The notes under the pieces are model-generated. The model was not told where the DNA came from, made no database searches, and saw only the letters and a list, made by a program, of their open reading frames with translations. A stretch of DNA of 64,000 nt from Stegostoma tigrinum. Lineage: Eukaryota. The stretch spans positions 11,056,822-11,120,821 of the forward strand of contig NC_081387.1 of assembly GCF_030684315.1 (NCBI RefSeq). The letters run 5' to 3'. This document shows, one piece after another, positions 7,357-63,940 of this stretch (positions are counted from its first letter, which is position 1; the number at the start of each line of letters is the position of its first letter). The position numbers and the translations under genes are program-made.

Positions 7357-7620
7357 CGTAAATCACTACCAGCTTGTCCTCCAGCCCGCTGTGTTCCACC
7401 TGACAGGAATACTCAGCCTGATCCACCGGATCAAACTCCATCCATTTCCGGATCTGGTAGGTCCTGTCATGATTGGGTAAGATTCCAGTGGACAGTGTCT
7501 CATCAACCAATACTCCATCCCTCCACAGGGTCACCTCGATGGCTTGGGGGTAAAACCCAGTAACGAGACAGGACAGCTGGTTGGAATTGCCCAGACGGGT
7601 AAGGGACACGATGGGGGCAA
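7357..7620 (-). CDS. MHC class I gene A, exon 4 (alpha3, Ig C1 domain)
   Basis: 264 nt, AG/GT-bounded, phase 1-1. LSCLVTGFYPQAIEVTLWRDG...LPNHDRTYQ...YSCQVEHSGL with both Cys. Confidence 0.96.
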
Positions 7621-7745
7621 CTGAGGGAGAGAGGAAGAGGAGTGAGTGCAGGAGCATCAAGATAGAGAGAATGACTATTATTTTTCCCCTTATTCACTGA
7701 ATGCCCCCCCCCCCGCCCCAGTTTACTCAGTTGCCCCTTACTCAC

Positions 7746-8018
7746 CTACACTCAGTTCTCTCTGTCCATATTCCAGGTATTTCCTCAGCCACTCAACACA
7801 CTCCACCTCCAAAAAATGCTTCCATTGCTGGTTGTTGAACTTATCCTGGTCCAAGTTGTTTTTGATGCTGTCCGCCCAGGGGACTTGGGTCACCCACACG
7901 ACATGATCCTTATCGAAACTGATAATGCCTTGTCCATCCCACCCATATTGATTGACAGCACTCACCATCTCATTGTCCCTCAGATCACAACCGATCATCA
8001 TCTGCAATGTGTGAATCC
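7746..8018 (-). CDS. MHC class I gene A, exon 3 (alpha2)
   Basis: 273 nt, AG/GT-bounded, phase 1-1. GIHTLQMMIGCD...QYGWDG...ECVEWLRKYLEYG with the C101/C164 pair. Confidence 0.96.
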
Positions 8019-8199
8019 CTGTCAATCCGGAACACAATTAGAGACAGTCACAGTGGGAGACCAAGGCTATCAGACCCACAAACACTGCCAATCAGCTTCT
8101 GGATCCCCAATCCTGATCCACGCCTGATTTCTCCCCATTCCATCCCAAACCCCCTGACTATACAGGAAGATCTAGAGTGGTGGACAGCTGAGCACTCAC

Positions 8200-8460
8200 C
8201 GTCTGTCTGGTTGGTCAGTGACATCACTATTGGAAAATAGTGTCTGAAAACATCCTCCCGCTTCTGAATGAGGAATAGTTTCCTTTTCCACAACTCAGGC
8301 CCCTCACTCTCCACCATCCACTGTTCCCGGGGGATTAGCTCTTTCCGATCACTGTCGTACATAACAAACTGGACCCCATCCACATAACCAACAAGCACAA
8401 ACTCTGGGAAACTGGGAATTGGAGTCATGCCAGTGGCAAAATACCGGACAGAGTGAGTGT
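8200..8460 (-). CDS. MHC class I gene A, exon 2 (alpha1)
   Basis: 261 nt, AG/GT-bounded, phase 1-1. THSVRYF...PEFVLVGYVDGVQFVMYDSD...WM...NQT sequon. Confidence 0.96.
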
Positions 8461-8609
8461 CTGAAACACAGAGACAAAAACAGTGGGGCATGAATTCCTC
8501 AATATCAATCACAAAACTCCAAGTGAATACTGAGAGAGACCTCCCTTTACGTTCCATACCTCTGTTTATAAAGCCAGAATTCCATCCACATCTTTAACCA
8601 TTTTCTGAA

Positions 8610-11730: not shown

Positions 11731-11749
11731 CAATACATTATGCATACAC

Positions 11750-12480: not shown

Positions 12481-13224
12481 TTTATCTTTCTAACTGTTAA
12501 CTGCTTAAGTCATCCTGCTGCCAATCTTTTCAATGTAATGAACTCCAAGTTTGAACTGAATGTACTGCTGCTGTCTCTTCCCAGTCCTTCAGTACTAATG
12601 CTTGTCTCAGATTGTGCACTGTGCATTGAACTGATACTATCATCTCAGACTTTAAGTTGTGTTTTGCATTGCTGATGTTGTCTTCACATATGAGTTGGGT
12701 GCTGCACTGATGCTGTAGCTCTCATTCGGACAGTTATGTCCTTTTACTGTTGCTGTCCCTTCTATTCAGTTTCCTATACTGCTATCAGCCCTCCCAGTCT
12801 CTGAACTGTGTCCTGTACTGACACTTCCCTCACTTTTGTAATCTGTGTCCTGTGCTGATATGGTCCTCTCAGACTGTGAGCTGGGTCCTGCATTGATATA
12901 GACCCTAGAGGGGTGAGAGTTGTTGTCCTGTACTAATTCTATTTCTCTCTCTCTCTGTGTACTGCAATTGTACTGTCTAACTCATTTGCTGTAATATGTC
13001 CAGTACTCATACTGTCCCCTCAGGCTGTCAGCTTGTCCTGTGCAGATTCTGTCCCTCTCAGTCTCTGATCTGTCTTCTGTACTGATATTGTCTCATGTCT
13101 CATTTGTCTCAGTGTGAGCTGGTTTCCATATTACCCCTCACAGACTATGAGCAGTGTCCTGAAATGAAACTGTCCCTCTCAGTCTGGGAGCTCTACTCTG
13201 CACTGATGCTTCTTTATTCATTCA

Positions 13225-13550
13225 CAGGATGACAACAGCGCTGGCTAGGAACCACTTATTGTCCATCCCTAATTGCCCAGAGGCCAATTAAGAGTCAGCC
13301 ACATTGCTATGGGTCTGGAGCCACATGTGGGCCAGACTGACAGTTTCCTTCCCTAAAGGTCATTAGTGAACCAGATGGGTTTTTCCAACAATCGATTCAT
13401 GGTCATCATTTGGGTCTTAATTCCAGATATTTGTTGAATTCAAATTCTGCCATCTGTGTGGTGAGATTCAAGCCCGAGTCCCCAGAATGTTAGCTGGGTC
13501 TCTGGATTAGCATTCCAATGATAATACCACTAGGCCATTGCATCCCCTTA
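13225..13550 (+). mobile_element. SINE/short interspersed repeat (related copies at ~33150-33505 +, ~36360-36700 -, ~48230-48540 +)
   Basis: Multi-copy in window: GCATTTATTGCCCATCCCTAATT...TTTCCTTCCCTAAAGGACATTAGTGAACCAGATGG. Confidence 0.7.
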
Positions 13551-13689
13551 GATACTGCTCCACTCAGTCAGTAATTGAGTCCTGTACTGAAACTGACACT
13601 TAGTTGGTGAGCTGGGATCAGTGCTAATTCTGTCCCTCTCATTCAGTGAGCTTGGACCAGTATTGATACTATCACTCTCTGTTTGTGAG

Positions 13690-14010
13690 ATCATAGATCA
13701 TACAATCCCTACAGTGTGGAAACAGGCCCTTCAGCCCAACAAGACCACACCAAACCTCAAAGCATCCCATCCAGACTCACCCTCCTATAGCCCACATAAT
13801 CTACACATCCCTGAACGCTACAGGCCAATTTAGCACAGCCAATCCACCTAGCATGCATATTTTTGGACTGTTGGAGGAAACCAGAGCACCAGAGGAAACC
13901 CAGGCAGACATGAGGAGAATGTGCAAACTACACAAAGAGGACAGAATTGAACCTGGGTTCCTGGCACTGTGAGGCAGCAGTGCTAACTACTGAGCCACAG
14001 GGCCACCCCA
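13690..14010 (-). mobile_element. tRNA-derived SINE (HE1-like)
   Basis: Reverse complement of the SINE at 4531. Confidence 0.85.
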
Positions 14011-15059
14011 AATGGGTGTCCTGTGCTGACGTTGTCCTCTCAGTATGTGATCTGTGTCCTGGACTGATATTGTGCCTCTCTGTCTGAGCGCTGTGTCCTG
14101 TACCGATAGTGTAGCTCTCATATGGTCATCTGGGGTAAGTACTGACTCAATCCCTCTCAGTCATTGAGCTTGGGCCTGTCCTGATACTTCAGTCTGAGGG
14201 CTGTGTCCCGTATTGATTGTATCTCATTTCAGTTTGTGAGCTGAGATCTGCAGTGATATTGCCCCCGCAGTTTGTGAGATGTGTTATCTATTAATTCTTT
14301 TGCACTCTGTGTCTTATATTGATACTGTCACTCTCAGTCAATGAGATTTGTCCTGATCTGACATAATTCCTCACTTTTAGTGGCCTGGGCCCTGTTCTGA
14401 TACGGGTCCTCTCAAAGTGTAGATGTGCTCTGTCCTAATTTTATCATTCTCAGTCAGTGAGTTATGTCTTGGACCTGTACTATACTACTCACTTGACGTG
14501 ATGTGTCTTGTACCCATATTGTCCCGTCAGACTGTGAGCATTGTCCTGAATAGTTTCTGTCCTTCAATCCTGTCTGGTATTAATACTGTCCCACTCAGTC
14601 TATAAGGTATGTCCTGTACTGGCACACTCACTGTCAACAGTGTCCTGTGCTGATACTATCCTTCTCCAACTCTGCTCTGTGTACTGTACTATTAGTGTCT
14701 CAATCCAGTCTATTGCCCCTATTGAGCCAAGTCCTGTATTGAATCTGTCGTATTCTGTCCATGTCCTGTCTTGGCACTGTCCGTCTCAGTCTGGAAGCTG
14801 TGTCCTTACTGAAAATACCCTTCCCAGTTTGTGAAAGTTATTGATGAACGTATCCCTCTCTGTCCATATCCTATATTGATACAGAGTCAATTCAATCTGT
14901 GAGTTGGGCCTGACAGTCCCAAGCATTCTGTGATTTGTGTCCACTATTGATTCTAGCCCTCGACTTCCATGTGCCATATTAATACTGCTCTGCTCTATCT
15001 GTAAATTATACTGACACTCCACCTTAGTCAGTGAGCTGTGTCCTATATCAATATCGCAC

Positions 15060-15895
15060 CTCTCAGTCTGTGAGCAACATTCTACACTGGCAGTATTCCT
15101 CTCAGTCTGTGAGCAACGTTCCACACTGGCAGTACTCCTCTCAGTCTGTGAGCAACATTCTACACTGGCAGTATTCCTCTCAGGCTGTGAGCAACATTCT
15201 ACACTGGCAGTATTCCTCTCAGTCTGTGAGCAACGTTCCACACTGGCAGTATTCCTCTCAGTCTGTGAGCAACATTCTACACTGGCAGTATTCCTCTCAG
15301 GCTGTGAGCACATTTCTACACTGGCAGTATTCCTCTCAGTCTGTGAGCACATTTCTACACTGGCAGTATTCCTCTCAGGCTGTGAGCAACATTCTACACT
15401 GGCAGTATTCCTCTCAGTCTGTGAGCAACATTCTACACTGGCAGTATTCCTCTCAGTCTGTGAGCACATTTCTACACTGGCAGTATTCCTCTCAGGCTGT
15501 GAGCAACATTCTACACTGGCAGTATTCCTCTCAGGCTGTGAGCAACATTCTACACTGGCAGTATTCCTCTCAGGCTGTGAGCAACATTCTACACTGGCAG
15601 TATTCCTCTCAGGCTGTGAGCAACATTCTACACTGGCAGTATTCCTCTCTGGCTGTGAGCAACATTCTACACTGGCAGTATTTCTCTCAGGCTGTGAGCA
15701 ACATTCTACACTGACAGTATTCCTCTCAGGCTGTGAGCAACATTCTACACTGGCAGTATTCCTCTCAGTCTGTGAGCACATTTCTACACTGGCAGTATTC
15801 CTCTCAGGCTGTGAGCAACTTTCTACACTGGCAGTATTCCTCTCAGGCTGTGAGCAACATTCTACACTGGCAGTATTCCTCTCAGGCTGTGAGCT
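15060..15895. repeat. Homogeneous 39-bp minisatellite (~21 copies)
   Basis: Unit CTCTCAG(G/T)CTGTGAGCAACATTCTACACTGGCAGTATTC; gives the 13-aa periodicity in the ORF track. Confidence 0.97.
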
Positions 15896-17969
15896 GTCTC
15901 TTGTGCTGACACTATCCCTCTCATTCTATGAGCTGTTTCCTGTATTGACACTGTTGCTCTCAGTCTGTGAGCTATCTCTTTTATTGGTGCTGTCACTCTC
16001 TATCTGTATGCCATTTCCTGAAATGATGCTGTCTCTCAGTCAGTGAGCTGTGTCCTGCACTGATACTAACCCCTTAGTCTGTAAGAACTGTTCTATACCT
16101 AATACTGTCATTTTTAGTCTGTGAGTATGACATGTTCTGATACTGTCCCTCTTTGTCTTTCAGCGGCTTCCTGTACTAACACCATTACAATGATACTTGA
16201 GCTCTCCGCTGTATGGCTGCTGTGTCTTCCCAAACCTTAGTGTTAATACTTGTTTTGGGCTGTGCAGTGTGCATTAAACTCTGAGCTGCGTCTTGCTCTG
16301 ATCATGACATCTCCACATACAGGCTGTGCCCTACACTGACAATGTCACTCTCAGACTGGGAGCTATATAAGGTCCTGATTTTGTCCATCAAAGCCTAAGT
16401 CCTGTGCTGGTATTGTCCTGTAAGTCTGTAATCTGTGCCCTGGCCTGATACTGTACTTTTTGTTCTGTGAATTGTGCCCTGTACGGATTCCAGCCTTCTC
16501 ATTCAGTGAGTTGTGTCCTATATTGTTACTGTCATTCTCAGTCTCTGAACTGTGTTTTGGACCGACACTGTTCCTCTCAGTCATTGAGACGTGACCCATG
16601 CTTTTATTGCCCTTTCAATCTGTAGGCTGGCTCCCGTAGTGATCTTGTCTCCAGCAGGCTGTGAGCAGTATACAGTATTGATTCTGTCCCTCTCTGTTCC
16701 TGTTCTACGTTGAAACTATCCCATTCAGTCTGTAAGCTTTTCATTGTCCTGAAACTGACCCAGTCAGTCTGTAGCCTACAGTCTCTTCTTGTCTGTGTCC
16801 TTGACCTCATTCCAAAACTGCCCATCTCACAACTTGGGCTATGGCCCATGCTAATACTGGCCCTCTCATTCACTGAACTGTGTACTGTATTAATCCTGTC
16901 TCATCTCAGTTCTTGACTTGTGTCCTGGACTCATACTGTTGTTCTCATTTGCAGTAACGTGCCTTATACTCATATTGTCACCTCAGGCTGTGAGCTGTGT
17001 TCAATGTTGAAGCTGTCACCATCTCCAAGCTGTGTCTTGCATTGATGTTGTCTCTCCTTGTCTTTGATTTGTGTACTAAACTCATGTTGCCTCATTCCTA
17101 ACTATTGCCTCTAACAATCTGTGAGCTGTATCCTGCATTGAATCTGTCCCTTTCTGTCCACATCCTGTAATAAAACTGTCCCACTCAGTCTGTAAGCTGG
17201 AACATGTTCTGCATGGCTGCTGTCTGTTCCCAAACCTTAGTCTGTCAGTTGTGTTCTGTAAATCTAGATTCAGATTTAGGTTTTATGGTCAGGTGTCCTC
17301 AGGTGCAGGGTACAAGAGAACATTGAAAAGTTTACACTGTCACCACGCGCAGACCCATTTTAGGTGCAAGGAACCGAGACACAAATTCTTATTTAGAGAA
17401 GTAGAAAAATAAAGAAACAAGTTAAAAAGTAGTGACGGGCTCCCTCTCAGTATCTCCCGACTGTTGAGCTGCCCCTCTGCTCATATTAATTCTCAAAGTG
17501 GGATTCCATTGTGATACTGCCCAGAGGATTCTGCGAACGGTGCCTAGTGTTGATTCTGTCCCTCTTTGTTTGTAGCTTGTATTGATACTGTTCCTCTGAG
17601 TCCGTGAGACATGTCCCGCACTGCCAATGACCCAAGAGTTTTTTGACCTGGTACTGTACTTATACTGTCCATCTCAATCTCACGGATATGTCCCAAACTC
17701 AAACTGTCCTTATGAAGCTATGAGCTGTGTCATGCATTGGTACGGTCTTCTTCAGCCTGCTAGCTGTGTCCTGTACTGATGTGACCCTCTCAGATGATGG
17801 GCTGAGATCTGGACTGATTCTGTCCCTCTATATTTATAATCTGTGCGCTGCAATGAGATTGACCTTCTCAGGTGGTGAGTTAGGATCTGTACTCATCCTG
17901 TCCCTCTCAGCCTATGCCTGCTATCCTGTATCAGTTCTTTCCCTTTCAATCTGAGCTATGTTCTATACC

Positions 17970-20240
17970 GTAGAACAGTACAGGCCCTTTGGCCCACGGT
18001 GTTGTGCTGAATTTTTACACTAATCCTCAGGCCTGTCTAATCTCCACCTCTATCTTATACTATCATCCATATGTCTATCTAACAGCCGCTTAAATGCCCC
18101 AAATGAGACCGACTCCACTACCCTCTCCAGCAATGCCTTCCATGCCCCGATCACTCTCGAAGTAAAGAACCTACCTCTGACGACTCCCCTATATCTACCT
18201 CCACTCACTCTGCCCCCTCGTAAAAGCTACATCCACCCTAAGAAAATGTTTCTGGCTACCTCTGATCATTTTGGACACCTCTATCAAGTCACCTCTCATC
18301 CTTCCTCTTTCTAAAGAGAAAATCCCTAGTTCTCTCAAACTTTCCTCGTGAGACCTTCCCTCCATTGTAGGCAACATCCTGGTAAATCTCCTCTGCACCT
18401 TTTCCAATGCTTCCACATGTTTCCAGTAATGAGGTGACCAGAACTGGACACAATACAGTACTGTCACAATGGCGGAGTGGACTTGATGGGCCGAATGGCC
18501 TTACTTCCACTCCTACGTCTTATGGTCTTAATATTCCAGATGTGGCCGAACCAGGGTTTTGTATAGCTGGAGCATAACTTCCCAACCTTGAACTCAATCC
18601 CTCTATTACTGAAAGCTAACACAGCATACACCTTCTTAACAACTCTATCCACCTCGGTGGAAGCTTTCAGGGAACTGTGGACATGAATCCCAAGATCCCT
18701 CTGCTCCTCCACACTGCCAAGAATCTTTCCGTTAACCCTGTATTCTGCTTTCAATTTTGTCCTTCCAAAATGAATCACGTCACATTTGTCAGCGTTAAAA
18801 TCCATCTGCCACTTCTCAGCCCAGCTCTGCATCCTATCGATGTCCATTTGTAGCCTAGAACAGCCCTCTGCACGATCCACAGCTCGACGCACCTTTGTAT
18901 CATCTGCGAACTCACTAATCCACTCTTCCACTCCTACATCCAAATCACTTACAAAAATCACAAATAGAAGAGGACCCAGAACAGATCCTTGTGGTACACC
19001 ACTCGTAACTGAGCACCGTACTGAATATTTTCCGTCCACTACCACCCTTTCTCTTCTAAGGGTCAGCTAATTCTGAATCCAATCTGCCACATTTCCCCCT
19101 ATCCCATGCCTCCTTATCCTCTGCATGAGCCTACCATGGGGAACCTTATCAAATGCCTCACTTAAGTCATGTATACCGCATCCACTGCTCTACCTTCATC
19201 CACGTGTTTGGTCACCTCTTCGAAGAATTCAATAAGGTTTACGAGGCATGATCTACCCCTCACAAATCCATGCTGACTATCACGAATCAAACTGTGCCTT
19301 TTCAAGTGATCACAAATCCTATCTCTCAGAGCCAGTTCCAATAATTTGCCCACCACTGATGTGAAACAAACTGGCCTGTAATTCCTGGGGTTAACCCTAT
19401 TCCCTTTTTGAACAAGGGAATGATGTTTGCCTCTCTCCAACCTTCTAGTAGTATACCCATGGACAGTGAGGATGAACAGATCACCAAAGGCCCTGCAATG
19501 TTTTCCCTCACTTCCCACAGAATCGTTGGATAAATCCCATCAGGCTTGGGGGACTTATCTATCTTCAAGTCTCTCAAAATTCCTAGTGCATCTTCCTTAC
19601 TAACATTGACCTCATCAAGCCTATCAACCTGTTTCACACTGTTCTTCTATACAACTAGGTCCCTCTCAGTTGTGAATATTGAAGAAAAGTACTCATTAAG
19701 GACCTGTCCTATCTCTTTAGGCTCAGTGCACAAATTCCCTTTACAATCCTAGATTGGCCCTACCCTTTCTCCGGTCATTCTCTTATTCCTCACGTACATG
19801 TAAGAAGCTTTGGAGTTTTCCTTGGTCCTATCTGCCAAGGTTTTCTCATGCCCCCTTACAGCTCTCCTAAGCCCTTTCTTCAGTTCCTTCCTGGATAACC
19901 TATATCCCTCTAGAGCCTTTTCCATTCCTTGTTTCCTAAACCTTACATAAGCCTCCTTCTTCCTCTTAACCAGTCTTTTGACCTCTCTTGAGAACCAAGG
20001 CTCCCTCACTCGACCACATCTTCCCTGCCTGCTAGGGACAAACATATCGAGTACACGCAGTATGCACTCCTTAAACAATCTCCACGTTTCAATAGTGCTC
20101 TTCCCTGACAGCATCTGTTCCCAATTTATGTTGCCCAGTTCTTGCCTAACAGAATTGTAATTATCCTCCCCCCAATTATAAACCTTGCCCTGATGTATGT
20201 ACCTTTTCTTTTCCATGACTATTGTAAAAGTAACAGAGTT
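17970..20240 (-). mobile_element. CR1 LINE ORF2 (degenerate); continues at ~22095-22255 beyond a nested Penelope
   Basis: GVPQGSVLGP, FADDTKV and DSQHGFVRGRSCL fragments. The endonuclease-region piece LEVPRFRCFKRNRE lies on the far side of the Penelope insert. Confidence 0.9.
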
Positions 20241-20269
20241 AAGATTTTTTTCTGAAGAAGGTCTAGGCA

Positions 20270-22085
20270 TGAAACAGTGACAATGGGAACTGCAGATGCT
20301 GGAGAATCCAGGATAATAAAATGTGAGGCTGGATGAACACAGCAGGCCCAGCAGCATCTCAGGAGCACAAAAGCTGACGTTTCAGGCCTAGACCCTTCAT
20401 CAGAGAGGGGGATGAGGAGAGGGTTCTGGAATAAATAGGGAGAGAGGGGGAGGCAGACCAAAGATGGAGAGAAAAGAAGATAGGTGGAGAGGAGAGTATA
20501 GGTGGGGAGGTAGTGAGGGGATAGGTCAGTCCAGGGAAGACGGACAGGTCAAGGAGGTGGGAGGAGGTTAGTAGGTAGGAAATGGAGGTAGGGCTTGAGG
20601 TGGGAGGAGGGGATGGGTGAGAGGAAGAACAGGTTAGGGAAGCGGAGCCGTGCTGGGCTGGTTTTGGGATGCAGTTGCGGGGAGGGGAAGAGCTGGGCTG
20701 GTTTTGTGATGCATTGGGGGGAGGGGTCGAACTGGGCTGGTTTTGGGATGCTGTGGAGGAAGGGGAGATTTTGAAGCTTGTGAAGTCCACGTTGATACCA
20801 TTGCGCTGCAGGGTTCCCAAGCAGAATATGAGTTACTGTTCCTGCAACCTTCGGGTGGCATCATTGTGGCACTGCAGGAGGCCCAAGATGGACATGTCAT
20901 CTGAGGAATGGGAGGGGGAGTTAAAATGGTTTGCGACTGGGAGGTGCAGTTGTTTATTGCGAACCGAGCGGAGGTGTTCTGCAAAGCAGTCCCCAAGTCT
21001 CCGCTTGGTTTCCCCAATGTAGAGGAAGCCACACACAGTATACTACATTGGCAGATGTGCAGGTGAACATCTGCTTAATATGGAAGGTCATCTTGGGGCC
21101 TGGGATGGGGGTGAGGGAGGAGGTGTGGGGGCAAGTGTAGCGCTTCCTGCAGTTGCAGGAGAAGGTGCCGGGTGTGGTGGGCTTGGAGGGGAGTGTGGAG
21201 CGGAAAAGGGAGTCACGGAAAGAGTGGTCCCTCTGGAAAGCAAACAAGGGTGGGGATGGAAAAATAGGGTCGGATTGTAGATGGCGGAAGTGTCGGAGGA
21301 TGATGCGTTTTATCCGGAGGTTGGTGGGGTGGTATGTGAGAACGAGGGGGATCCTCTGGGGGCAGTTGTGGCGGGGGCGGGGTGTGAGCGATGTGTTGCG
21401 GGAAATGCGAGAGATGCACTCAAGAGCGTTCTCGACCACTGCAGGGGGAAAGTTGTGTTCCTTGAAGAACGTGGACATCTGGGATGTGTGGGAGTGAAAG
21501 CCCCATCCTGGGAGCAGATACGGCGGAGGTGGAGGAATTGGGAATAGGGGATGCAATTTTTCCAGGAGGGTGGGTGGGAGGAGGTGTATTCTAGGTAGCT
21601 GTGGGAGTCAGTGGGCTTGAAATGGACATCAGTTTCTAGCTGGTTACCTGAGATGGAGACTGAGAGGTCCAGGAAGGTGAGGGATATGCTGGAGATGGCC
21701 CAGGTGAACTTGAGGTTGGGGTGGAAGGTGTTGGTGAAGTGGATGAACTGTTCGAGCTCCTCTGAGGAGCAAGAGGTGGCGCCGATACAGTCATCAATGG
21801 AACAGAGGAAGAGGTGGGGTTTGGGGCCTGTGTAGGTGCGGAAGAGGGACTGTTCCACATAACCTACAAAGAGGCAGGCATAGCTTGCGCCCGTGCAGGT
21901 ACCCATGGCCACCACCTTTGTCTGTAGGAAGTGGGAGGAGTCGAAAGAGGAGTTGTTGAGGGTGAGGACGAGTTCGGCTTGGCGGATGAGGGTGTCGGTG
22001 GAGGGGGACTGGTCTGGCATGCGGGACAATGTCAGCTTTCCTGCTCCTCTGATGCTGCTTGGCCTGCTGTATTCATCCAGCTCTC
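20270..22085 (-). mobile_element. Penelope-like retroelement (RT + GIY-YIG endonuclease) with inverted terminal piece at 22030-22085
   Basis: RT: FLQTKVVAMGT..YACLFVG..IDDCIG, FLDLSV, HFKPTDSHSYL. GIY-YIG: CGFLYIGETKRRLGDCFAEHL...PVANHFN. Confidence 0.92.
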
Positions 22086-22259
22086 CACCAGACTATGTAG
22101 ACAGATCATTCTTGAACTGCCTTTCAGTCGCTGCTCTACTAGCCCTGACTGGCAATGCCATTCCCCCGCTTCTTTTTCCACCTCCCTATTTCTTTTAAAG
22201 CATCTAAATCTCGGAACTTCCAACAACCATTCCTATCCCTGAGTTACCCAAGTTTCTGT

Positions 22260-23720
22260 AATGGACCACAGCTGTCGCTCTCGGTCTGTGAGCTCTATTC
22301 TGAACTGACACTGTCTGTTTCAGCCTTTGAGCTGTGTCCAGTTACTGAGACTGTCCCTCTAACTCTGTGAGCTGTGACCTGCACTGACACTGTCCCTCCC
22401 CACTCCAGTGCGCGAGCTATATCCTATATATATATTGCGCCTCTCAATCTGTGAGCCATGTCTTATACTAACACTGACCTCTCAGTCTCTCGTGACCTGT
22501 ATTGACACTGACCTCGCAGTCTGTGAGCTGTGTCCTGTATTGACACTGTCACTCTTGGTCGGTGAACTGTGTTCTGTAATCACATGCTGCCAATCAGTGA
22601 GCTCTCCCTCTCCACATATTAATTCTGAATGCTTCTTCAGATATCTTTTCTTGAATGTCTGTGCAGCAGAGCTGAAATCTGATTCTTTCCTCAAACACCC
22701 TGTAAGTTGATTAGGCTTGCAAAATGCAGTTGATGCCAAACTTAGTTAGCAAGCCAAGCCTCCAACAGAATACAGACAAATGGCATTCTCGATCATTCTT
22801 TTCTTCCTGTTTTACTTGTTGGACCTGTTTTTGCCACCACACCCCTTGTGGGTTCAACAGAAAAAACCTATTGTGATGAACACATTCCTCATCTTGTGTT
22901 GCTGGGGTGTCAACCATCTCATTGGATTGTGTATGCAATACTACCTTTGGCATTCTGCATATATTGTGTTTCAGTGAGCCACATTATTGATACTGTCTCT
23001 CTCAGTCTGAAATATGCCCTATACTGATGCTGTCCCCCTCAAACTGTGATAACAAAGTGTGTAGCTGGATGAACACAGCAGGCCACGCAGCATCTCAGGA
23101 GCACAAAAGCTGACGTTTCAGGCCTAGGCCCTCAAACTGTGAGTTGTGTCCTGAACTAATATTGACCCTGATACCCAGTGAGCCATGTCCTCCAATGTCC
23201 TATCTTGTACTCATACTGCTGTTTCAGTCTGTGAGGTGTGTCCTATACTGACACAGTCATTGTCAAGCCGAGAGCTTTATCCTGTACAGCTATTGCCCTA
23301 CTTGTCTGTCATCTGTGCCTTGTACTGGTACTGGCTCTCTCAGATGTGAGCTGGGACCTGCACTGATTCTGTCCTTCTCAGTTAGGGAGATGTGCCCAGT
23401 ACCAACACTGTACCTGTCAGTCTGCAAGATGGATCTTGTGCTGATACTGTCCGTCTCACTCTCTGCATTACGTCCAATATTCGTACTGACTCTCCGAGGC
23501 TATCAGCCATGTCTTGTATTGTTTCTATCCCTCTTGGTACAGGACATGGACTGACAATGTCTTACTCAGTCTGTAAGCTGCATCCTTCACTGATATTGGC
23601 CCCTTCAATCTCTGAGTTGTGTCTGTACCGATACTGTCCCTCTCAGTCTGTAAACTGTGTGTTCCGTAGTAATGTGCTTCTTCTCAGTATCTCCCCATTG
23701 CTGAGATCTGACTCTACGTG
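22260..23720. repeat. Second block of the degenerate 39-bp satellite (gene A intron 1)
   Basis: Same CTGTGAGCTGTGTCCTGTA motif, interrupted by a non-satellite block at 22600-22975. Confidence 0.8.
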
Positions 23721-27332: not shown

Positions 27333-27495
27333 TTTGACATCATCTGGAAATTCGTGAGAAGTCATTTTCCAGCGGAGTGTCTCAATCTGTGAGCTGCGTC
27401 TGGACCGATATTAAAACTCTGCTCCTGTTCACTCAAACACCTTGATACCGTTTGGACTCAATCAAAATTAAAAGGCTCTTTACATAATAGACTCC

Positions 27496-43100: not shown

Positions 43101-44420
43101 TTCCCACCCCCCTGCCATACTAGTTTAAACCCTCTCAAACTACTCGAGCAAACCTTCCACCCAGGACATTGGTCCCCTTCCAGTTCAGATGCAACCCGTC
43201 CGTCTTGTACAGGTGCCACCTTCCCCAGAAGGCATCCCAATTATCTACATATCTGAAGCCCTCCCTCCTACACCAGCTACGCAGCCACGTGTTAAGCTGC
43301 GCCCGCTCCCTGTTCCTCACCTCACTATCTCGTGGCACCGGTAGTAAACTAGAGAACACTACTCTGTTCGTCCTGCTTTGCAGCTTCCATCCTAACTCCC
43401 TGAAATCACTTTTTAGATCCTCAATCCTTTTTCTGGCTATATCATTAGTGCCAATATGTAACATGATTTCTGGCTGTTCGCCCTCCCCTTTTAGAACCTT
43501 ATACATCCGATCGGAGACATCCCGGGCCCTGGCACCAGGGAGGCAACATACCTTCTGGGAATCCCGATCCTGACCACAAAATCTCCTGTCGATTCCCCTA
43601 ACTATCGAGTCCCCTACCATGAGTACCTTTCTATTCTGCCCCCTTCCCTTCTTTGCCACAGTGTCAGGCTCAGTGCCAGAGAACTGACTACTATGGCTTT
43701 CCTCTGGTAGGTCATTCTCCCCCAGCAGTATCCAAAACGGTATACTTATTGCTGAGGGGAATGCCCACAGGGGATCTCTGCACTGTCTGTCTGTCCCCTT
43801 TCCTCCCCCTAACTGTAACCCATCTATCCTTGTCCTGAGCCTTTGGAGTGACCAACTCCCGGTAACTCCTCTCAATTACCCCCTCTGCCTCCCGAATGAT
43901 CCGTAGTTCATCCAGCTCCCTAACACGGTTTTCAAGGAGCTGTAGCTGGGTGCACTTCCCGCAGATGTAGCCAGCGGAGACGTGTGCCACATCTCCCAAC
44001 TGCCACATTTTGCAGGAGGAGCAAGCAACTGCCCTAGCATCCATACCCCACTTATCTGAACACCCACTCAGTACTAAAGTAGAACGCTTAGTTCAAGTTG
44101 CTATAAAGTTAATAACAAACTTATATTCAATAGAGAAAGTTTAGAATGAACCTTACCTTATTAACTAGGTTAGAGGAGGAGGGTGGGTGGGAGACACTAC
44201 AGTTGTAGAGTCTCGGGTTTAGCCGCCTTGGCTGATATATATGGCCACTGCTTTCCTTCCCGGTTGCCCCTCTGGCCGTCGTCACTTCCTCCGCTGCTCC
44301 CGCTCCTTCTGTGAAAGCGAAAACACCGCTGCCTGCTACCGGTAAGTAATTTTTAAAAACTGCCTTACCTTACCTGCAGTCTTCCGGGTTCATCTTACCT
44401 CCTCTGCTGCTCGCACTCAA
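40149..44420 (-). mobile_element. Near full-length CR1 LINE: 5'UTR, ORF1 (Zn-finger + SGNH esterase), ORF2 (APE-RT), (TTCTATG)n tail
   Basis: ORF1: CSSC..CGKC finger, then GDSIVR..PGAR..HIGTND..DGLHLN esterase. ORF2: NARSIRNK, ITETW, MGDFNFP, LDLVLGN, SDH endonuclease and YMDFSKAFD/FADDTK RT. Only about three disabling changes. Confidence 0.97.
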
Positions 44421-53497: not shown

Positions 53498-53725
53498 AGG
53501 AACAAAAACAGAAGTTTCCAGAAAAGCTCAACAGGTCTGGCAGCATCTGTGAAGAAAATAATCGGAGTTAATGCTTCATGTCTGGTGACCCTTACTCAGA
53601 ATGACCTCACCGGACCCGAAACCTTAACTCTGATTTATTCCTCACAGATGATGCCAGACCTGCTGAGCTTTTCCAGCAACTTCAGTTTTTGTTCCTGATC
53701 AGCATCCGCAATTCATTCGGTTTTT
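53498..53725. mobile_element. Fold-back repeat (related copy ~50215-50455), probably Penelope-terminus-derived
   Basis: CAGGTCTGGCAGCATCTGTG mirrored by CACAGATGATGCCAGACCTG. Confidence 0.7.
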
Positions 53726-54100
53726 ATTTCATATTCTACTGGATCCACCTGGCCCTGGTTCCAATCACTATAGAATTCAATGGATACAGCAGGTTCTGTC
53801 ACACTAATGTCAGATGATATATCATATTCCTTAACCCTGCAGTGTTCTTGGATCTTTAAGATGCTGGAAATAGCAATGTACTCCAGGACACACTGGGATA
53901 TGTCCTACCATAGCACCCCTGGATTCACTGTCTTTATGACTGCTCTCCAGCAATGGTGTGAGCACTGTGACACACTGATATCAATATTTTTGCCCCTCTC
54001 AATCCTAGGATGTCCTGGTGAAGCGGCTCGGCGCTGACCTGCCCCCCTCGGATCCTGGTCTGGGTCTGATTCATCTCTAATAATGAGAAAAAGGTCTTAC

Positions 54101-54364
54101 CATAAATCACCACCAGCTTGTCCTCCAGCCCACTGTGTTCCACCCGACAGGAATACTCGGCCTGATCCACCGGATCAAATTCTATCCATTTCCGGATCTG
54201 GTAGGTCCTGTCATGATTGGGTAAGATTCCAGTGGACAGGGTCTCATCGATCAACACTCCATCCCTCCACAGAGTCACCTCGATGGCTTGGGGGTAAAAC
54301 CCGGTGACGAGACAGGACAGCCGGTTGGAATCGCCCAGATGAGTAAGGGACACGACGGGGGCAG
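54101..54364 (-). CDS. MHC class I gene B, exon 4 (alpha3)
   Basis: 264 nt, AG/GT-bounded, phase 1-1; about 91% aa identity to gene A alpha3. Confidence 0.96.
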
Positions 54365-54608
54365 CTGAGGGAGAGAGATAGAGGAGTCAGTGCACGAACA
54401 TTGAGACAAAAACGAACCTTGCGGTACAGAGTCCCAGGCAACACATCCTTCACTGACTCTCAAACCACCCATACTCACTGTCTCTCACTTCCCCGCATCC
54501 CATCTTACTTCTTCCCCAACTCATACTCTGATTCTCACTGAGTCTCCTCCCCCCTCACTCAACAACTCTCACTCAAACCTTCCCCCACCCCCATCCCCAT
54601 CAACTCAC

Positions 54609-54881
54609 CGACTCTCAGTTCCCTCTGTCCATATTCCAGGTATTTCCTCAGCCACTGGACACATTCCTCCTCCAGGAAATTCTTCCACTCCTGTTTGTAC
54701 ACCACATGCTGGTTCCACCTGTTTTTGATGCTTTCCGCCCAGGGAACCGGTGTCACCCACACCATGTGATCCTTATCGAAGCTGATTAAATCTTGTCCGT
54801 CCCATCCAAGTTGACTGAACGCTCTCACAATCTCATTATTCCTCACGTCACAGCCAGTCACCATCTGGTACGTGTGGATCC
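54609..54881 (-). CDS. MHC class I gene B, exon 3 (alpha2)
   Basis: 273 nt, AG/GT-bounded. GIHTYQMVTGCD...GWDGQDLISFDK...ECVQWLRKYLEYG. Confidence 0.96.
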
Positions 54882-55083
54882 CTGTCAATCACAATCACAA
54901 GCTTCCAGTTAGAGACAGTCAGCCCTGTCAATCAGTCTCAGGGTGAGAACCCCATCATCAGACTCACAACCACAGCCAGCCTCTGGATTGCAGATCCAGA
55001 TCTGCACCTGGCCCCTCCCCATTCCCACCCAGACTCCCTGAAAGCACAGGAAGGTGTCATGCTGAAGTAAAGGGAGCACTCAC

Positions 55084-55344
55084 CCAATGTCTGATTGGTC
55101 CGTGACATTAGTACTGGAATGTACGGCTTGAAATGGTTCTCCATCCGCTGAGCAAGATATAGTTTCCGCTGCCAGGCCTCATGTCCCTCACTCTCCACCA
55201 TCCACTGTTCCCGGGGGATCAACACCTTCCGATCGCTGTCGTACATAACAAACTGGACCCCGTTCACGTATCCAACAATGACAAACTCGGGGAAACCAGG
55301 AATTGATGACACAGCAGTGTGGAAGTACCGGAGAGAGTGAGTGG
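55084..55344 (-). CDS. MHC class I gene B, exon 2 (alpha1)
   Basis: 261 nt, AG/GT-bounded. THSLRYFHT...PEFVIVGYVNG...RTNQT. Confidence 0.96.
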
Positions 55345-56199
55345 CTGAAACACACGGAAAAATCAGGACATGAATCCCTGAACACCAATCACAAAACTAC
55401 AACTGAATGCTATCTCTTTACACTCTACATCTGCATTTATAAAGCTCAGGATCCCATCCATCTCTTTCACCACTTTCAGGCTGGGACCCATAAACCCACT
55501 CATTTTGCCATTCAAAGGTAGTACCGACCCACCCCGACATCCTGTGTGTTACCATTAACCAGAAACTGAGGTGGATTAGCCAAATAAAAGCTCTGTGTTC
55601 CTGTTGCCTGTTTGCATCAGGAGATGTTTTCATTATTTAATCTCCCCTCCTTTCACCCTATCACAGATTTTCTCCTTTCATCTTCATGTCTCCTCCTCCG
55701 TCCATTGCCTTAAAAGGCTTTCAGCAATGATGAAATATTTCTCCCCACGATGCTGCCTGATCAGCTGAATATATCCAGCTATTTTGTTGTGGTCTATTTT
55801 GCCACACGATCCAATCTTGTCTGCTGCTAGACCTGAGCTGAATTCAAGAAATAAACTCAAAACAAACAAACAAACAAACACATTCAACTCCACCATCATC
55901 ACAGCAATAATGTCACACATAATGGAACAGCCAAAAAGTGTTTATATTTTTGTTTCACGGGATGTGGGATCATTGTATAGGGTGGCATTTTCTCCCATCT
56001 CCGATTGTCTGAGAACGTGGTGGTGAGACACCATTTTGAACCACTGCAGTCTGTGTGGTGTAGTTACACACACAGTGCTGGTCCCAGCTAAAAATGTCAA
56101 TTAATTGCCTTTAATTCCAAAACTTTTCTTAATTCTGGGAAACCAGATGAATAACATAAATCTTTTACTGAAATATTTGCAAACATTTTATTCCAGTTT

Positions 56200-59570: not shown

Positions 59571-60209
59571 ACATCTGGATTGATTTTACAAGCTTCGTAT
59601 CAAAGACCCCAATTTCTGACAGTTATAACTTAAATTCCTAAACATATTCCAAAAACAATGAATGATGAAACAGATTTTCCCAAGAGGCAAAAAGAACAGG
59701 TTCAAGGGGATGAATACTCTTCCAATTCTTATGGCCTTTCCTTTCATTCATTCCAGGGGGGTGGGTATAGGTCAGCCCTTGTAGTCCACCTTCAATTACA
59801 CTGACACCAGTTATAAACAATGCCCATTCCAGTGAGTCTGAAGTCACAGGTAGGTACGACCAGGAAGAGACAGCAGACTGCCTGCCCTAAAAGAACATTG
59901 TTGCACTAGACAGATATTTATGATATTTTTCTTCCACATTCTTCACTGCTAACTTCCTGTCCCAACACTCCAATTAAATGTCGCTGCCTTTCTATTCCAC
60001 CACATTCCCCTGATCTCAGTCTGACACTCCTCCCTTAATCACCAGCACACACTTACTGCAGGTAACAGTCCAGCACATCTCTGGCTCTCAACTGCAGACA
60101 CTCAACCAGTAATGGAGTTCAAATATCATTAAAGATTTCTCCAAAAAGCAACAAGACAACAGTTTGTTAGAATTCTATTCCAATAACGCATTTTTTCTAA
60201 TTCAGCAAG

Positions 60210-61027
60210 GTGTGCCCTGGACTGACACTGTCCCCGACCCCGGTCTGTGAGCTGTATCCCGTACTGGCACTGTCCCCGTCCCCGGTCTGTGAGCTGTATC
60301 CCGTACTGACACTGTCCCCGACCCCAGTCTGTGAGCTGTATCCCGTACTGGCGCTGTCCCCGACCCCGGTCTGTGAGCTGTATCCCGTACTGGCACTGTC
60401 CCCGACCCCGGTCTGTGAGCTGTATCCCGTACTGGCGCTGTCCCCGACCCCGGTCTGTGAGCTGTATCCCGTACTGGCGCTGTCCCCGACCCCGGTCTGT
60501 GAGCTGTATCCCGTACTGGCGCTGTCCCCGACCCCGGTCTGTGAGCTGTATCCCGTACTGGCGCTGTCCCCGACCCCGGTCTGTGAGCTGTATCCCGTAC
60601 TGGCGCTGTCCCCAACCCCGGTCTGTGAGCTGTATCCCGTACTGGCACTGTCCCCGACCCCGGTCTGTGAGCTGTATCCCGTACTGACACTGTCCCCGAC
60701 CCCGGTCTGTGAGCTGTATCCCGTACTGGCACTGTCCCCGACCCCGGTCTGTGAGCTGTATCCTGTACTGGCTCTGTCCCCGTCCCCGGTCTGTGAGCTG
60801 TATCCCGTACTGGCACTGTCCCCGACCCCGGTCTGTGAGCTGTATCCCGTACTGGCGCTGTCCCCGTCCCCGGTCTGTGAGCTGTATCCCGTACTAACAC
60901 TGTCCCTGTCGGTCTGTGAGCTGTATCCCGCACTGACACTGTCCCCGGTCTGTGAGCTGTATCCGGTACTGGCACTGTCCCCGTCCCCGGTCTGTGAGCT
61001 GTATCCCGTACTGACAATGTCCCCTCA
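60210..61027. repeat. Homogeneous 42-bp minisatellite (~19-20 copies) in intron 1 of gene B
   Basis: Unit CCGGTCTGTGAGCTGTATCCCGTACTGGC(A/G)CTGTCCCCGACC; 14-aa periodicity in the ORF track. Confidence 0.97.
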
Positions 61028-62744
61028 ATTTATTTTTACAGCTGTGGCATGAACACTTGCGTAAACAAATTCCTCCTCATGTGTTGTAAAGCTATCAGCC
61101 TTCCTCTAGACACAGCTTCCACTGCTGTCTGTAGCTTTCCTGCAAACATCTTTTCTCGAGGTAAATCTCTGAAGGCAAAGCTAGAATCTCTGTAACCAGA
61201 CAGGCATTATTGTTGACTCTTTCGCATCTAATGGTTTATGGTCCATCTGTCTGAGCACTTCAGCCCAAGGTATTAATTAGATAATGAGGTAACTTAATTG
61301 ATGAGTTTATCTGCTCATAGATTCAGAGCTGTTCCCACCAGCCAATCCCTCTAATGTCATCATGTTGAATGAATATTAATCCTCTCCTCGGCAATAACCA
61401 TTGCAGAGTTGAAAATCTTGTCTAACACAAGGGAGAAGACGAATGAAATGCTCTCAGAGCACTTGTCTGGATGAGTACAGTTCCAACACACTCAAGAAGC
61501 TCAACACCATCTAGCATAGAGCAACCCACCAAGGGGACTATTCAACATCTCCAACATTCATTGCCTTCACCACTGATGCAGAGTGACAGTAAAGAGTGTA
61601 TCTCTGAGAAGATGCACTGCAGGATCCCGCCCAGCATCATTTGATAGTACATTCCCAACTCAAAATCTCCTTTCTCCAAGGCCAAAGGGAGCAGAGAGAT
61701 GGGAACACCACAATCTACAAGTTCACCTCCATGTCTCATCCTGACTTGGAACGATCTCACCATTCCCTCACTGTTACTGGAATATAACTTGAGAGCTTGC
61801 TCCCTAACAGCACTGGTGGACTGCAATGGTTCAACATTCTTGCTCACTGCCACCTCTGAGAGCAAATAACAACGAGCAATACGTCCCAGCTTTACCTGTA
61901 ACACTCGGATGTCATTGACTAATATAAACAAAACGTCCAAGCGGAATACAACTGTAAAACAGTATAATATTCAGCTTCTTGAAACTGGCAGACTGGAACA
62001 TGAGGAAGCCATTCAGCCCTTCAAGCCTGCTATGCAGGAATAGGAAGAGGTCATTTGGCCCCTTCAGTTTTTGACACAGTGACAGAAACAAGTCCCTCGG
62101 ACCCACGATGCTGGCCATTCCCATGTCACTTTTAGTTTCCACCTGTGTTCCATTTCTGATGTTGAGGTTTTGTGGACCTCGGCAGCTGATGGTTGATTTG
62201 TGGCATGCACAGCTGCAGGGAAGGAATGGTTCCTCCATTTGTGTGTATGCACTGCGATGGTATCGAGTCAGAGTCACACAGCAAGGAAACAGACCTTCAG
62301 ACAGTTTAGTTAAATCGATGAGAATACCACAGTTAGGCCGACTGGAGAGAATAAAATATGATTTACTGAAATAAAACGAAGATTTGAGAAGCCATTTTGT
62401 TAGCTTATTATCCAAAGCTGGGGAATGGAGAGAATTTCACAATTCACTTCAGCCTCATCCATTGAATAATCAGACTTTGTTTAGTTCTCAAGTTCATGCA
62501 TTTTTCACTTTTTGCTTTACTTGTAAATGTATTTACTAATATTTTAACTTCACTTTTCTATCCTTTAACGTTCAATAAATCATTTGAAACAAAGGTTTTT
62601 GCTGTCGCATTATAGTTAAGTCTCATACAAACCTGAATAATTTTAAATATTGGATTCACCAAAGTTAAAAACATGTAATCAAATAAATTGTACCAAATAA
62701 AACACTCTGACAGTCATATGTTCCAGGGTTAAAATCGCAGTCAG

Positions 62745-63838
62745 CACCCTTCTTCAGAAATGGGGAAGTGGGAAGGAAACTCTGAAATAAATAGAGTGGG
62801 GACAGGTGGGACTGGGAAAGGTAGCCGGGGTGGTGATAGGGATTGGTCAGTGAGGGGACACGAGCAGATAGGTGGTAGAGAAGATGGGCAGGTTGAGTCA
62901 GGTCAAGGAGGTGGGGATGTGAAGAAGGTTTGGTCATGGGATGAGGACGGGATGGGGCGATTTTGAAGCGAGCAAAGTCCACATTGGGACCATTGGGCTG
63001 TAGGCTCCTAAGGTGGAACATGAGGTGCTGTTCCTCCAGTTTCCACGCAGCATAATTGTGACACTGGGGGAGGCCCAGGATGGATATGTTGTCCGTGGAG
63101 TGGGAGGGGGAGTTGAAGTGGTTAGCGACTGGAAGGTGTTGTCGTTTGTCGCAAACACAGCGCAAGTACTCTACAAAGCGGTCCCTGAGCCTCCGCTTCG
63201 CCTCACCAATGGCGAGGAGGCTGCAGGGGGAGCAGCGGATGCAATAGACCACATTGATAGATGTGCAGGTGACCCTCTGTCTGATGTGAAATATTTGTTT
63301 GGAGCCTGGGGATTGAGGTGGCCGGGGGCGGGGGGGTGAGGGGGGAGGAGATGTAGGGGCATGGTTCGAACTTCCTGCAGTTGCACAAAAAGGTCCTGTG
63401 GGTAGGGGACCAGAGGGGAGTGTCTAGTGGACGAGGGAGTCACAGAAAGAGCAATCCACAGGGAAGGCAGGGTGGGGGAATTATTTTCGGCTGTGGGATC
63501 AGATTGCAGGTGGCAGACGTGACGGAGAACACGGACTCCCACAGCTACATTAGAATACACTTCCTCTCACCCACGTCCCTGACCAGGAATGCAATCCCTT
63601 ACTCCAAATTCCTCCACCTCCCAAGATGGGGCGTTCCACTCCTCAACATCCCAAATATCCTCTCATTTCAAGGACGGCAACGTCCCCCCTTCAGTGGTCG
63701 AAAGTCATCTTGATCACATCCCTTGCGTTTCCCGCACCTCTGCCCTCACATCCCCTCACTGCAAAAACAAAGACAGAATTCCCCTTGTCCTCATATCACC
63801 CCATTAACCTCAGAATTCAGTGTATCATTCGCCGCCAC
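62745..63838 (-). mobile_element. Penelope-like fragment: GIY-YIG end on minus (62745-63530) with 5' part inverted on plus (63550-63838)
   Basis: VYCIRC..C.LLAIGEAKRRLRDRF..PVANHFN on minus; LEYTSSHP..NAIPYSKFLHL...DRIPLVL...IQCIIRRH on plus. Confidence 0.85.
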
Positions 63839-63891
63839 TGACTGAGGACTAATGCACCAGGACCCAGCTGGAATTGTGCCCAGTTACCCAC

Positions 63892-63940
63892 CTGCAGAGA
63901 GCTCTCCACACAGAAGCCCCAGCACGAACAGTCGGATCAT
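63892..63940 (-). CDS. MHC class I gene B, exon 1 (signal peptide MIRLFVLGLLCGELSA)
   Basis: 49 nt, ATG to phase-1 donor G|GTGGGT, in frame with the alpha1 acceptor at 55344. Not in the ORF track. Confidence 0.9.

Follow-up and report, generated by a model that had tools for sequence, protein, structure and literature searches.

The 64,000-nucleotide window of the zebra shark genome analysed here (Stegostoma tigrinum, contig NC_081387.1, positions 11,056,822 to 11,120,821) carries two MHC class I genes in tandem on the minus strand, called genes A and B below. The question raised by this locus is to which class I family the genes belong, and what can be held by grooves in which many residues anchoring the two ends of a peptide have been replaced. 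The initial annotation, made by eye from the letters, regarded the genes as an intact nonclassical pair of a UBA-like multicopy family, whose remodelled grooves may bind modified peptides, lipids or metabolites. No other class I exons or flanking genes were seen in the 64 kb.

The exons of gene A were located on the minus strand at 27332-27284 (leader), 8460-8200 (alpha1), 8018-7746 (alpha2) and 7620-7357 (alpha3), the leader being counted from the ATG homologous to that of gene B; the RefSeq start lies 33 bases earlier, at 27365. For gene B, the corresponding minus-strand exons lie at 63940-63892, 55344-55084, 54881-54609 and 54364-54101, and its alpha3 DNA is 92% identical to that of gene A. 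As annotated from the start, all eight exons are open and correctly phased; they are in phase 1 and bordered by GT donors and AG acceptors. The deduced proteins match exactly the RefSeq zebra-shark records XP_048375730.2 (gene A) and XP_059495393.1 (gene B), which carry generic names instead of the UBA label. The alpha1 and alpha2 domains of gene B match the shark class I structure 6LUP with phmmer E-values of 1.9e-22 and 1.5e-25, which are not chance.

The description of both genes as intact holds within the window for gene B, but a membrane exon of gene A was not found there. In gene B, the visible part of the connecting-peptide/membrane exon occupies 51624-51528 on the minus strand, its first bases falling in a run of N, and residues 286-314 of the zebra-shark protein P0002 correspond to 51624-51538 at 100% identity. 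Two cytoplasmic exons follow on the same strand, the first (50551-50519) carrying a tail tyrosine and the second (49847-49809) ending in the stop codon. Acceptor-like bases before the membrane segment were considered as the start of an out-of-phase exon and rejected, because these bases are coding. For gene A, no membrane or tail exon with a fitting context was found in 1-7356 by likeness to the gene B exons, tblastn or a hydrophobicity scan; this part, 3' of alpha3, holds LINE-like and integrase-bearing mobile DNA. Since the RefSeq model of gene A includes a membrane segment and a tail, these exons must lie beyond the left end of the window.

Intron 1 of each gene contains a minisatellite to which no strand is assigned: 21.4 copies of a 39-base unit at 15059-15894 in gene A, where further, degenerate copies adjoin the array at either end, and 19.4 copies of a 42-base unit at 60221-61024 in gene B. 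The likeness of the latter to these degenerate copies is about 70%. Simple scanning of the 568 bases 5' of gene A gave one inverted CCAAT and no match to ISRE, kB, TATA or CRE, and is uninformative. In a sequencing run of a relative, whose RNA nature is only guessed, one 2422-base contig is spliced at the same exon borders with about 92% identity; from run X3 came nothing but short, diverged fragments, of which some probably belong to classical class I. A listing of sequencing runs for window positions 54000-55400 named no RNA run, which is evidence in neither direction. Over 588 bases, two runs of two samples showed 0 and 1 differences from gene B, in contigs that drop rare variants and with one sample possibly being the source of the window.

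In a formal alignment with HLA numbering, gene A has in alpha1 Y7 (codon at 8443), L59 (8293), K63 (8281), L84 (8218) and the N86 sequon (8212), and in alpha2 C101, G122 (7929), I143, N146, L147, F159, C164 and Y171. The equivalents in gene B are Y7 (55327), A59 (55177), K63 (55165), R84 (55102) and N86 (55096), followed by C101, D122, I143, R146, W147, F159, C164 and Y171. The eight anchors of classical class I are Y7, Y59, R84, T143, K146, W147, Y159 and Y171. The by-eye reading that gene A keeps only Y7 and Y171 (two of eight anchors) and gene B Y7, R84, W147 and Y171 (four of eight) was correct at every listed residue, and the two disulfides (C101/C164 and C203/C259) and the sequon were confirmed in both genes. 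So was G122 of gene A, a residue unique among 69 shark and ray rows. Lysine does stand at position 63 of both genes, but the acid that it was said to replace is not invariant, E being present in 17 of 32 shark classical-type rows. Because of F159, both genes lose a contact kept as Y159 by 27 of 37 UBA rows. The two genes are 39% identical at groove-lining positions and 78% elsewhere in alpha1-2, and positions 8, 10, 27, 48, 96, 115, 119, 235 and 242, taken here as beta2-microglobulin contacts, are unchanged in both.

UBA is one of the two expanded class Ib families of sharks, characterised among other things by little polymorphism and by low or restricted expression, and Bartl et al. are said to have described it in 1997 as a nonclassical lineage of elasmobranchs. 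PMC12562908 likewise cites a 1997 description, and PMC10751288 describes a UBA gene cluster that is MHC-linked, contains UBA genes only and has c4 and rxrb as flanking genes. Genes A and B almost certainly belong to this shark and ray family, as the initial annotation proposed. The nurse-shark protein AAC60347, to which supplementary file 10 of PMC10751288 gives the label Gcirratum_UBA, served as reference; a quick 74-row tree was followed by a careful one of 35 rows (LG+G4) as a check. The LG+G4 tree places gene B as the sister of AAC60347 (100/99), and gene A lies within their carpet-shark subclade (SH-aLRT 97 for the quick tree; 93/85 for the LG+G4 tree). Horn shark AAC60348 also belongs to the UBA clade. 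The split between UBA and classical-type rows is supported at 100/100, and an AU test rejects joining genes A and B with seven classical-type rows (p=0.0036); these seven were labelled from their own anchors, and nurse-shark UAA was compared by phmmer and fold only. References for UCA, UDA, UFA and UGA were left out of the trees, and by-eye text comparison found them far less alike to the two genes. The label UEA has 0 occurrences in supplementary file 10, and UEA membership is unlikely because of the high identity to the labelled UBA. Besides the tandem pair in the window, the UBA character of a multicopy family is seen in four zebra-shark proteins of the clade (P0002, P0030, P0012 and P0061). 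P0040, a protein named beta2-microglobulin, was rejected as such and belongs to a UBA heavy-chain cluster. UBA is a known family, and genes A and B are ordinary members already present in RefSeq.

Gene B appears to be the orthologue of AAC60347 (identity 78% in alpha1, 85% in alpha2 and 87% in alpha3), with which it has in common multicopy tandem genes and a signature of no Y59 together with K63, I143, R146, W156 and F159; gene A is a more eroded paralogue, with L84, N146, L147 and G122. The UBA clade, represented by 37 proteins of 15 different sharks and rays, was compared with 32 other, classical-type chondrichthyan rows. Y59 occurs in 0 of the 37 versus 30 of the 32, T143 in 2 versus 31 and K146 in 4 versus 28, and conversely K63 is found in 34 versus 1 and K63 with an acid at 163 in 33 versus 1. 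I143 is present in 30 UBA-clade proteins, and residues still common among the 37 include Y7 (30), R84 (27), W147 (25), Y159 (27), W167 (37) and Y171 (29). The number of retained anchors ranges from 0 to 6 of 8 in UBA, within which both window genes fall, and is 7-8 in 26 of the 32 classical-type rows. The view that the pocket changes are special to genes A and B was rejected, since they are common to published nurse-shark and ray UBA references; what had been presented as surprising is a standing signature of the lineage. As judged from the aligned rows, the remodelling is mostly lineage-wide, and only the extra losses of gene A, namely G122 and a very hydrophobic F pocket, stand out.

Structure prediction, which had been suggested as a check, was done for the heavy chain of gene A. 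The model (mean pLDDT 84) predicts a normal class I fold in which neither helix is interrupted, the best match being 6LUP (TM 0.90 by target, rmsd 2.4). UAA, represented by 6LUP, has the same exon layout, fold, disulfides, sequon and beta2-microglobulin-contact residues and a related alpha3, but UAA-type rows differ in Y59, T143 and K146 and form a separate clade.

Outside the groove, the codon comparison of genes A and B demonstrates purifying selection (dN/dS of 0.113/0.688), versus 0.503/1.091 at 36 groove codons. Grooves are orthologous between species, with identities of 97% for P0012 and whale-shark P0009 and 86% for P0061 and P0068, while paralogues share a homogenised alpha3 (dS 0.22 versus 0.74-0.77), which is more alike among them than among orthologues. 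Groove variability among UBA paralogues (entropy 1.72) is as high as that among classical-type rows (1.62), which argues against one shared ligand.

On this basis, we propose as the likeliest mechanism that A and B, which likely encode beta2-microglobulin-bound surface class Ib molecules, would hold a peptide by its C-terminal half and by hydrophobic pockets, as HLA-F does, leaving the N-terminus extended or blocked; the whole proposal seems to us about evenly balanced between right and wrong, and the ligand class taken by itself evenly balanced at best. PMC8236899 assigns Y7, Y59, D/E/Q63, Y159 and Y171 to a water-mediated network binding the first peptide residue. Loss of Y59 and fixation of K63 would dismantle this network, and put a positive charge at the place of the free peptide amine; K63 may form a pair with the conserved acid at 163. 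In gene B, R84, R146 and W147 could still hold the C-terminal carboxylate despite I143. Each paralogue would have its own fixed groove, with gene conversion keeping alpha3 and the membrane part alike, and display would probably be to innate-like T cells or NK-type receptors. Gene A would have gone beyond this, its F pocket being hydrophobic almost throughout, and its cargo may be different; lacking R84, K/R146 and W147, having G122 and keeping two anchors, it fits C-terminal anchoring poorly.

A rather doubtful alternative is that the grooves, above all that of gene A, bind lipids, lipopeptides or other hydrophobic non-peptides in the manner of chicken YF1 or CD1. Mean groove hydropathy is 0.33 in UBA versus -0.05 in classical-type rows, and F-pocket hydropathy 0.40 versus -0.38, in rows so related that p-values overstate the difference; this higher hydrophobicity also fits lipid-like cargo. 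Gene A ranks third of 37 for the groove (1.06) and second of 37 for the F pocket (2.30). Chicken YF binds hydrophobic non-peptide ligands in a classical-like frame (PMC9372762), and sharks have lipid-binding class Ib molecules, UFA and UGA (PMC12562908). The groove of gene B, however, lies at the UBA mean (0.35), has an excess of two basic over acidic residues and retains R84, R146, W147 and Y171; Y7, Y159, Y171 and W167 persist in most UBA rows; and the gene A model is nearer to the classical 6LUP, its nearest solved structure and a peptide binder (52% identity), than to 9CH4, the structure of CD1-like UGA (34%). From hydropathy and retained residues, gene B is the less favoured candidate for binding lipids or metabolites and gene A the more plausible one.

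It is unlikely that UBA molecules carry no informative cargo, with an empty or generically filled groove, and serve as ligands, of self or of stress, for paralogue-matched NK-type receptors. Erosion of both terminal pockets and the uniform alpha3 would agree with this, and so would the near-frozen state of some grooves between species, which is expected for a germline receptor partner. Against it, structure prediction does not give a collapsed groove, and the divergence of A from B is concentrated at groove-lining positions, which points to selection on groove contents. Still more unlikely, in our estimate, is that UBA forms a system of ancient origin devoted to microbial peptides whose N-terminus is blocked by a formyl, acetyl or acyl group. 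There, a small residue in place of Y59 and a K63-E163 pair, fixed and common to sharks and rays, would reject free amino termini and admit the blocking group, each species-spanning groove would select its own invariant T-cell set, and the alpha3/membrane chassis would be held uniform by gene conversion; if true, this would be an H2-M3-like pattern-recognition array of independent origin, arising far earlier than in rodents.

We consider it improbable that birth-and-death evolution has made gene A a pseudogene, young or decaying, whose extra anchor losses reflect drift. In its favour are G122, where all 32 other rows have D, an end branch of 0.28-0.31 with no close orthologue retrieved, and mobile DNA with no membrane exon in the 7.3 kb after alpha3. 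Changes against four outgroups lean to A over B in the groove (8:6, 7:3, 9:3 and 9:2) and alpha3 (6:2, 5:3, 4:3 and 5:1), but none of the relative-rate tests for decay is significant, and outside the groove there is no excess in A (11 versus 12, 10 versus 11, 9 versus 12 and 8 versus 14). Its frames are open and its splice sites canonical, its four cysteines and the sequon are intact, and the RefSeq model is a complete membrane protein. That A and B are UAA genes of the classical kind, diverged but presenting ordinary peptides, is scarcely tenable despite their near-classical fold and alpha3 and the statement that UBA derives from UAA (PMC12562908), since their anchor counts and the AU test led us to reject classical identity.

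Comparable grooves are known elsewhere. In Xenopus XNC4 and human HLA-F, as in UBA, the terminal anchors of a class Ib frame are eroded and the F pocket is hydrophobic; their origins are independent, the shark change being loss of Y59 with K63. HLA-F has a blocked A pocket and takes N-terminally extended peptides. Grooves rebuilt for unusual cargo are also seen in class Ib molecules of other lineages, such as mouse H2-M3, which binds N-formyl peptides, chicken YF1, MR1, and the CD1-like UFA and UGA of sharks. In MR1 the ligand-binding lysine is on the groove floor, whereas K63 of UBA is on a helix; the place equivalent to K43, the Schiff-base lysine of MR1, lies in a gapped region and is apparently occupied by leucine in A, B and AAC60347. 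For frog XNC4, in which terminal anchors are likewise missing, binding of 12-16-mers is mentioned as unpublished data (PMC12562908, section 2.3). Our search found no paper on the ligand, structure or receptor of UBA, on K63 or on alpha3 conversion; subscription literature and a thesis that PMC10751288 cites lay outside it and may well cover these subjects.

The present analysis adds a testable UBA signature (Y59 absent, K63 together with an acid at 163, I143 and W156), evidence that fixed grooves are combined with an alpha3 that is homogenised, and a natural contrast between gene B, near the ancestral state, and the strongly hydrophobic gene A. If the model of a blocked or extended N-terminus is true, it would show at how early a stage innate-like sensors were made from a classical peptide presenter.

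Two class I heavy-chain genes are present on the minus strand of the window, as the initial annotation had proposed, and our exon models bear out its open, correctly phased leader and alpha1-3 exons in both. These exons are at 27332-27284, 8460-8200, 8018-7746 and 7620-7357 in gene A, with an intron 1 of 19 kb between leader and alpha1, and at 63940-63892, 55344-55084, 54881-54609 and 54364-54101 in gene B; their lengths are identical in the two genes (49, 261, 273 and 264), and all are phase 1 and stop-free with canonical splice sites. The term "intact" suits gene B, which continues through a connecting/membrane exon (51624-51528 visible, the first bases lying within a run of N) and two tail exons with a stop codon at their end, but is not borne out for gene A within the window, because no membrane exon was found in the 7.3 kb remaining past alpha3, where LINE-like DNA and an integrase-bearing element are present. 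The gene B model is a letter-for-letter part of XP_059495393.1 and the gene A model likewise of XP_048375730.2, both generically named RefSeq models of Stegostoma tigrinum; since the latter includes a membrane segment and tail, these exons of gene A, as modelled by RefSeq, must lie past the window's left end. For gene B, RefSeq also has the isoforms XP_059495392.1 and XP_059495394.1, both with an alternative first exon (56465-56364, minus) that does not look like a signal peptide and is similar to mobile-element pieces at other places in the window; XP_059495394.1 lacks the membrane exon as well. These isoforms may be model noise or may represent a non-membrane form. A tblastn search with five class I proteins as queries found no third class I gene in the window.

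The would-be intron past gene A alpha3 contains a broken retrovirus-like element on the opposite strand (about 540-2900), whose integrase core (799-1101; Pfam rve, E 2e-14) is followed by cysteine-rich open stretches (1697-2460) that have no Pfam match and may be envelope-like. Intron 1 of both genes carries a related minisatellite family with a 39-42-base unit (12800-18000, 22270-23650 and 60208-61024), with one young array per gene and many degenerate copies besides in gene A; the family may be older than the duplication and could promote recombination in the cluster. Related fragments, ~69% alike, in both first introns (20362-22092 and 62668-63860) were called Penelope-like by eye, with no Pfam match, and LINE reverse-transcriptase pieces are dispersed across both introns and the intergenic space. 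An open stretch at 43138-43875 (minus) has an SGNH/GDSL esterase domain, as occurs in ORF1 of CR1/L2-type LINEs.

A search with the gene B alpha1 exon gave 24 proteins from 34 candidates, 23 of them named shark records, with a top match 100% identical; the nearest match from another species was nurse shark AAC60347, labelled Gcirratum_UBA in supplementary file 10 of PMC10751288. UBA has been described as a class Ib family that arose from UAA and expanded (PMC12562908), and as a separate MHC-linked cluster, flanked by c4 and rxrb, with a function described as unknown (PMC10751288); passages of PMC6523485 gave nothing further on shark UBA. A full-length search gave 95 proteins from 2303 candidates, and 107 of 116 proteins, those of 250-420 residues, were aligned. 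Five shark and ray records (P0001, P0045, P0046, P0055 and P0038; 476-839 residues) have doubled class I domain sets and are probably fused models of tandem copies. For alpha1-2, 74 rows were kept, after removal of surplus isoforms, cluster members, and models that were partial or odd, and a quick mixture-model tree placed both genes with AAC60347 in a 37-row clade (SH-aLRT 95) of 15 species, including 3 sawfish and ray rows, separate from 32 other chondrichthyan rows. Built from 35 of these rows, a careful LG+G4 tree split 28 UBA rows from 7 anchor-retaining rows, labelled in this analysis and picked after the first tree, at 100/100, and placed gene B beside AAC60347 (100/99); grouping genes A and B with the 7 rows was rejected (AU p=0.0036). 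Both trees were built without labelled UCA, UDA, UEA, UFA or UGA sequences. The earlier reading of the genes as UBA-like and not classical is thus sustained, and their membership of the UBA family is virtually certain.

Residues were numbered through P0114, a mammal-type class I record in which Y7, Y59, Y84, C101, T143, K146, W147, Y159, C164, Y171, C203 and C259 all fall on their textbook numbers, and every residue previously listed for the two genes was confirmed in the formal alignment. Judged by the aligned sequences, the remodelled pattern is a property of the UBA lineage. Y59 is found in 0/37 UBA versus 30/32 other rows, K63 in 34/37 versus 1/32, L66 in 32/37 versus 2/32, I143 in 30/37 versus 1/32 (T143 in 2/37 versus 31/32), K146 in 4/37 versus 28/32 and W156 in 28/37 versus 8/32. 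UBA rows keep 0-6 of the eight anchors (Y7, Y59, R/Y84, T143, K146, W147, Y159 and Y171), with five in 13 rows, whereas 26 of the 32 others keep 7-8. Mostly kept in UBA are Y7 (30/37), R84 (27/37), W147 (25/37), Y159 (27/37), E163 (32/37), W167 (37/37) and Y171 (29/37), and an acid at 163 faces K63 across the groove in 33 of 37. The replacement of acidic E63 by lysine stands as to the lysine but not as to an invariant acid, for the other rows include E (17/32), Q (5/32) and N (4/32). A published ray UBA reference, read by eye, lacks Y59 and has K63, I143, R146, W156 and F159. Special to gene A are L84, L147 and G122, the last rightly singled out as a departure (1/37 UBA, 0/32 others). Over the usual lists of pocket positions, the UBA rows average 0.33 in groove hydropathy; gene B, at 0.35, is typical, whereas gene A reaches 1.06, and the F-pocket value of gene A, 2.30, is second of 37. 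Because the rows are related to one another, p-values for these figures should be read with caution. P0061 (zebra shark) and P0068 (epaulette shark) form a long-branch UBA sublineage with S63, T143 and W146 in place of K63, I143 and R146. UBA anchor residues are probably tabulated by Bartl (1997) and in the two Almeida papers (2020, 2021), and we therefore do not claim the signature as new.

An AlphaFold2 model of gene A from a 66-row alignment is confident (mean pLDDT 84) and predicts a platform of eight strands, alpha1 and alpha2 helices without breaks, an Ig domain and a membrane helix. The fold lies nearest to 6LUP, a classical shark class I structure (E 3e-32, TM 0.90 by target, 52% identity), ahead of shark UGA 9CH4 (34% identity), and a sequence search found no solved structure closer than 6LUP. 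In one sequencing run of a relative, taken by guess as RNA, a 2422-base contig spans gene B alpha1-alpha3 with both introns skipped and 49 differences in 659 bases, its loose ends appearing by eye to be leader and connecting peptide; it documents splicing of a UBA-type transcript in that relative and does not demonstrate that genes A and B are expressed. In two runs with the window's own sequence, 0 and 1 differences from gene B were counted over 588 bases, too little for judging polymorphism.

Comparison of genes A and B gives a dN/dS of 0.113/0.688 over 140 codons outside the groove and of 0.503/1.091 over the 36 codons in it. Purifying selection acts on the frame, and changes gather in the groove at no more than the neutral rate. 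With each of four outgroups, no excess change was found in gene A outside the groove, and groove and alpha3 changes lean to the gene A side, not significantly. Silent divergence is lower in alpha3 (dS 0.22 versus 0.74 and 0.77 in alpha1-2; 12/62 versus 50/105 silent sites, Fisher p=0.0003), and the likeness continues into the flanking intron (89%, first 45 bases). In alpha1-2, gene B pairs with nurse shark, and two further zebra shark paralogues, P0012 and P0061, pair with whale shark (97% groove identity) and epaulette shark (86% groove conservation); in alpha3, B pairs with P0012 (98%, SH-aLRT 91) and A with P0061 (87), on 89 columns of weak resolution. Since pairs are cross-species in alpha1-2 but within-species in alpha3, the sequences point to gene conversion of alpha3 atop separately maintained grooves. 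Such homogenisation occurs in other class I families; for elasmobranch UBA, our literature search found only a review. The orthologous pair of P0012 and whale shark P0009, whose groove identity exceeds the 92% outside it, is a good candidate for a fixed ligand.

Classical class I molecules bind the first residue through its main chain, using Y7, Y59, D/E/Q63, Y159, Y171 and water, and use R/Y84, T143 and K146 for the C-terminal end (PMC8236899); non-mammal R84 permits C-terminal overhang (PMC9372762). With Y59 gone, lysine fixed at 63, nearly always opposite acid 163, and a basic or tryptophan set retained by most members at the C-terminal end, UBA would no longer bind a free N-terminal amine; the cargo would most likely be a peptide gripped by the C-terminal half and hydrophobic pockets, its N-terminus extended or blocked. 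HLA-F holds peptide in this manner. Frog XNC4 is said to work likewise, on unpublished data cited in section 2.3 of PMC12562908. The whole mechanism has about an even chance of being right, and it fits gene B; gene A, having lost the C-terminal set as well, may have lipid-like cargo or be decaying.

Lipid binding by UBA grooves is the strongest alternative, though we consider it unlikely. That UBA proteins are cargo-independent receptor ligands appears less probable still. That gene A is a pseudogene we regard as improbable. Classical function of A and B is scarcely credible, given the rejected grouping with anchor-retaining rows.

Genes A and B are real, correctly read by the initial annotation, and new members of a known family. 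No ligand or structure of UBA was found in the literature searched, and it is the ligand that constitutes the testable part of these genes.
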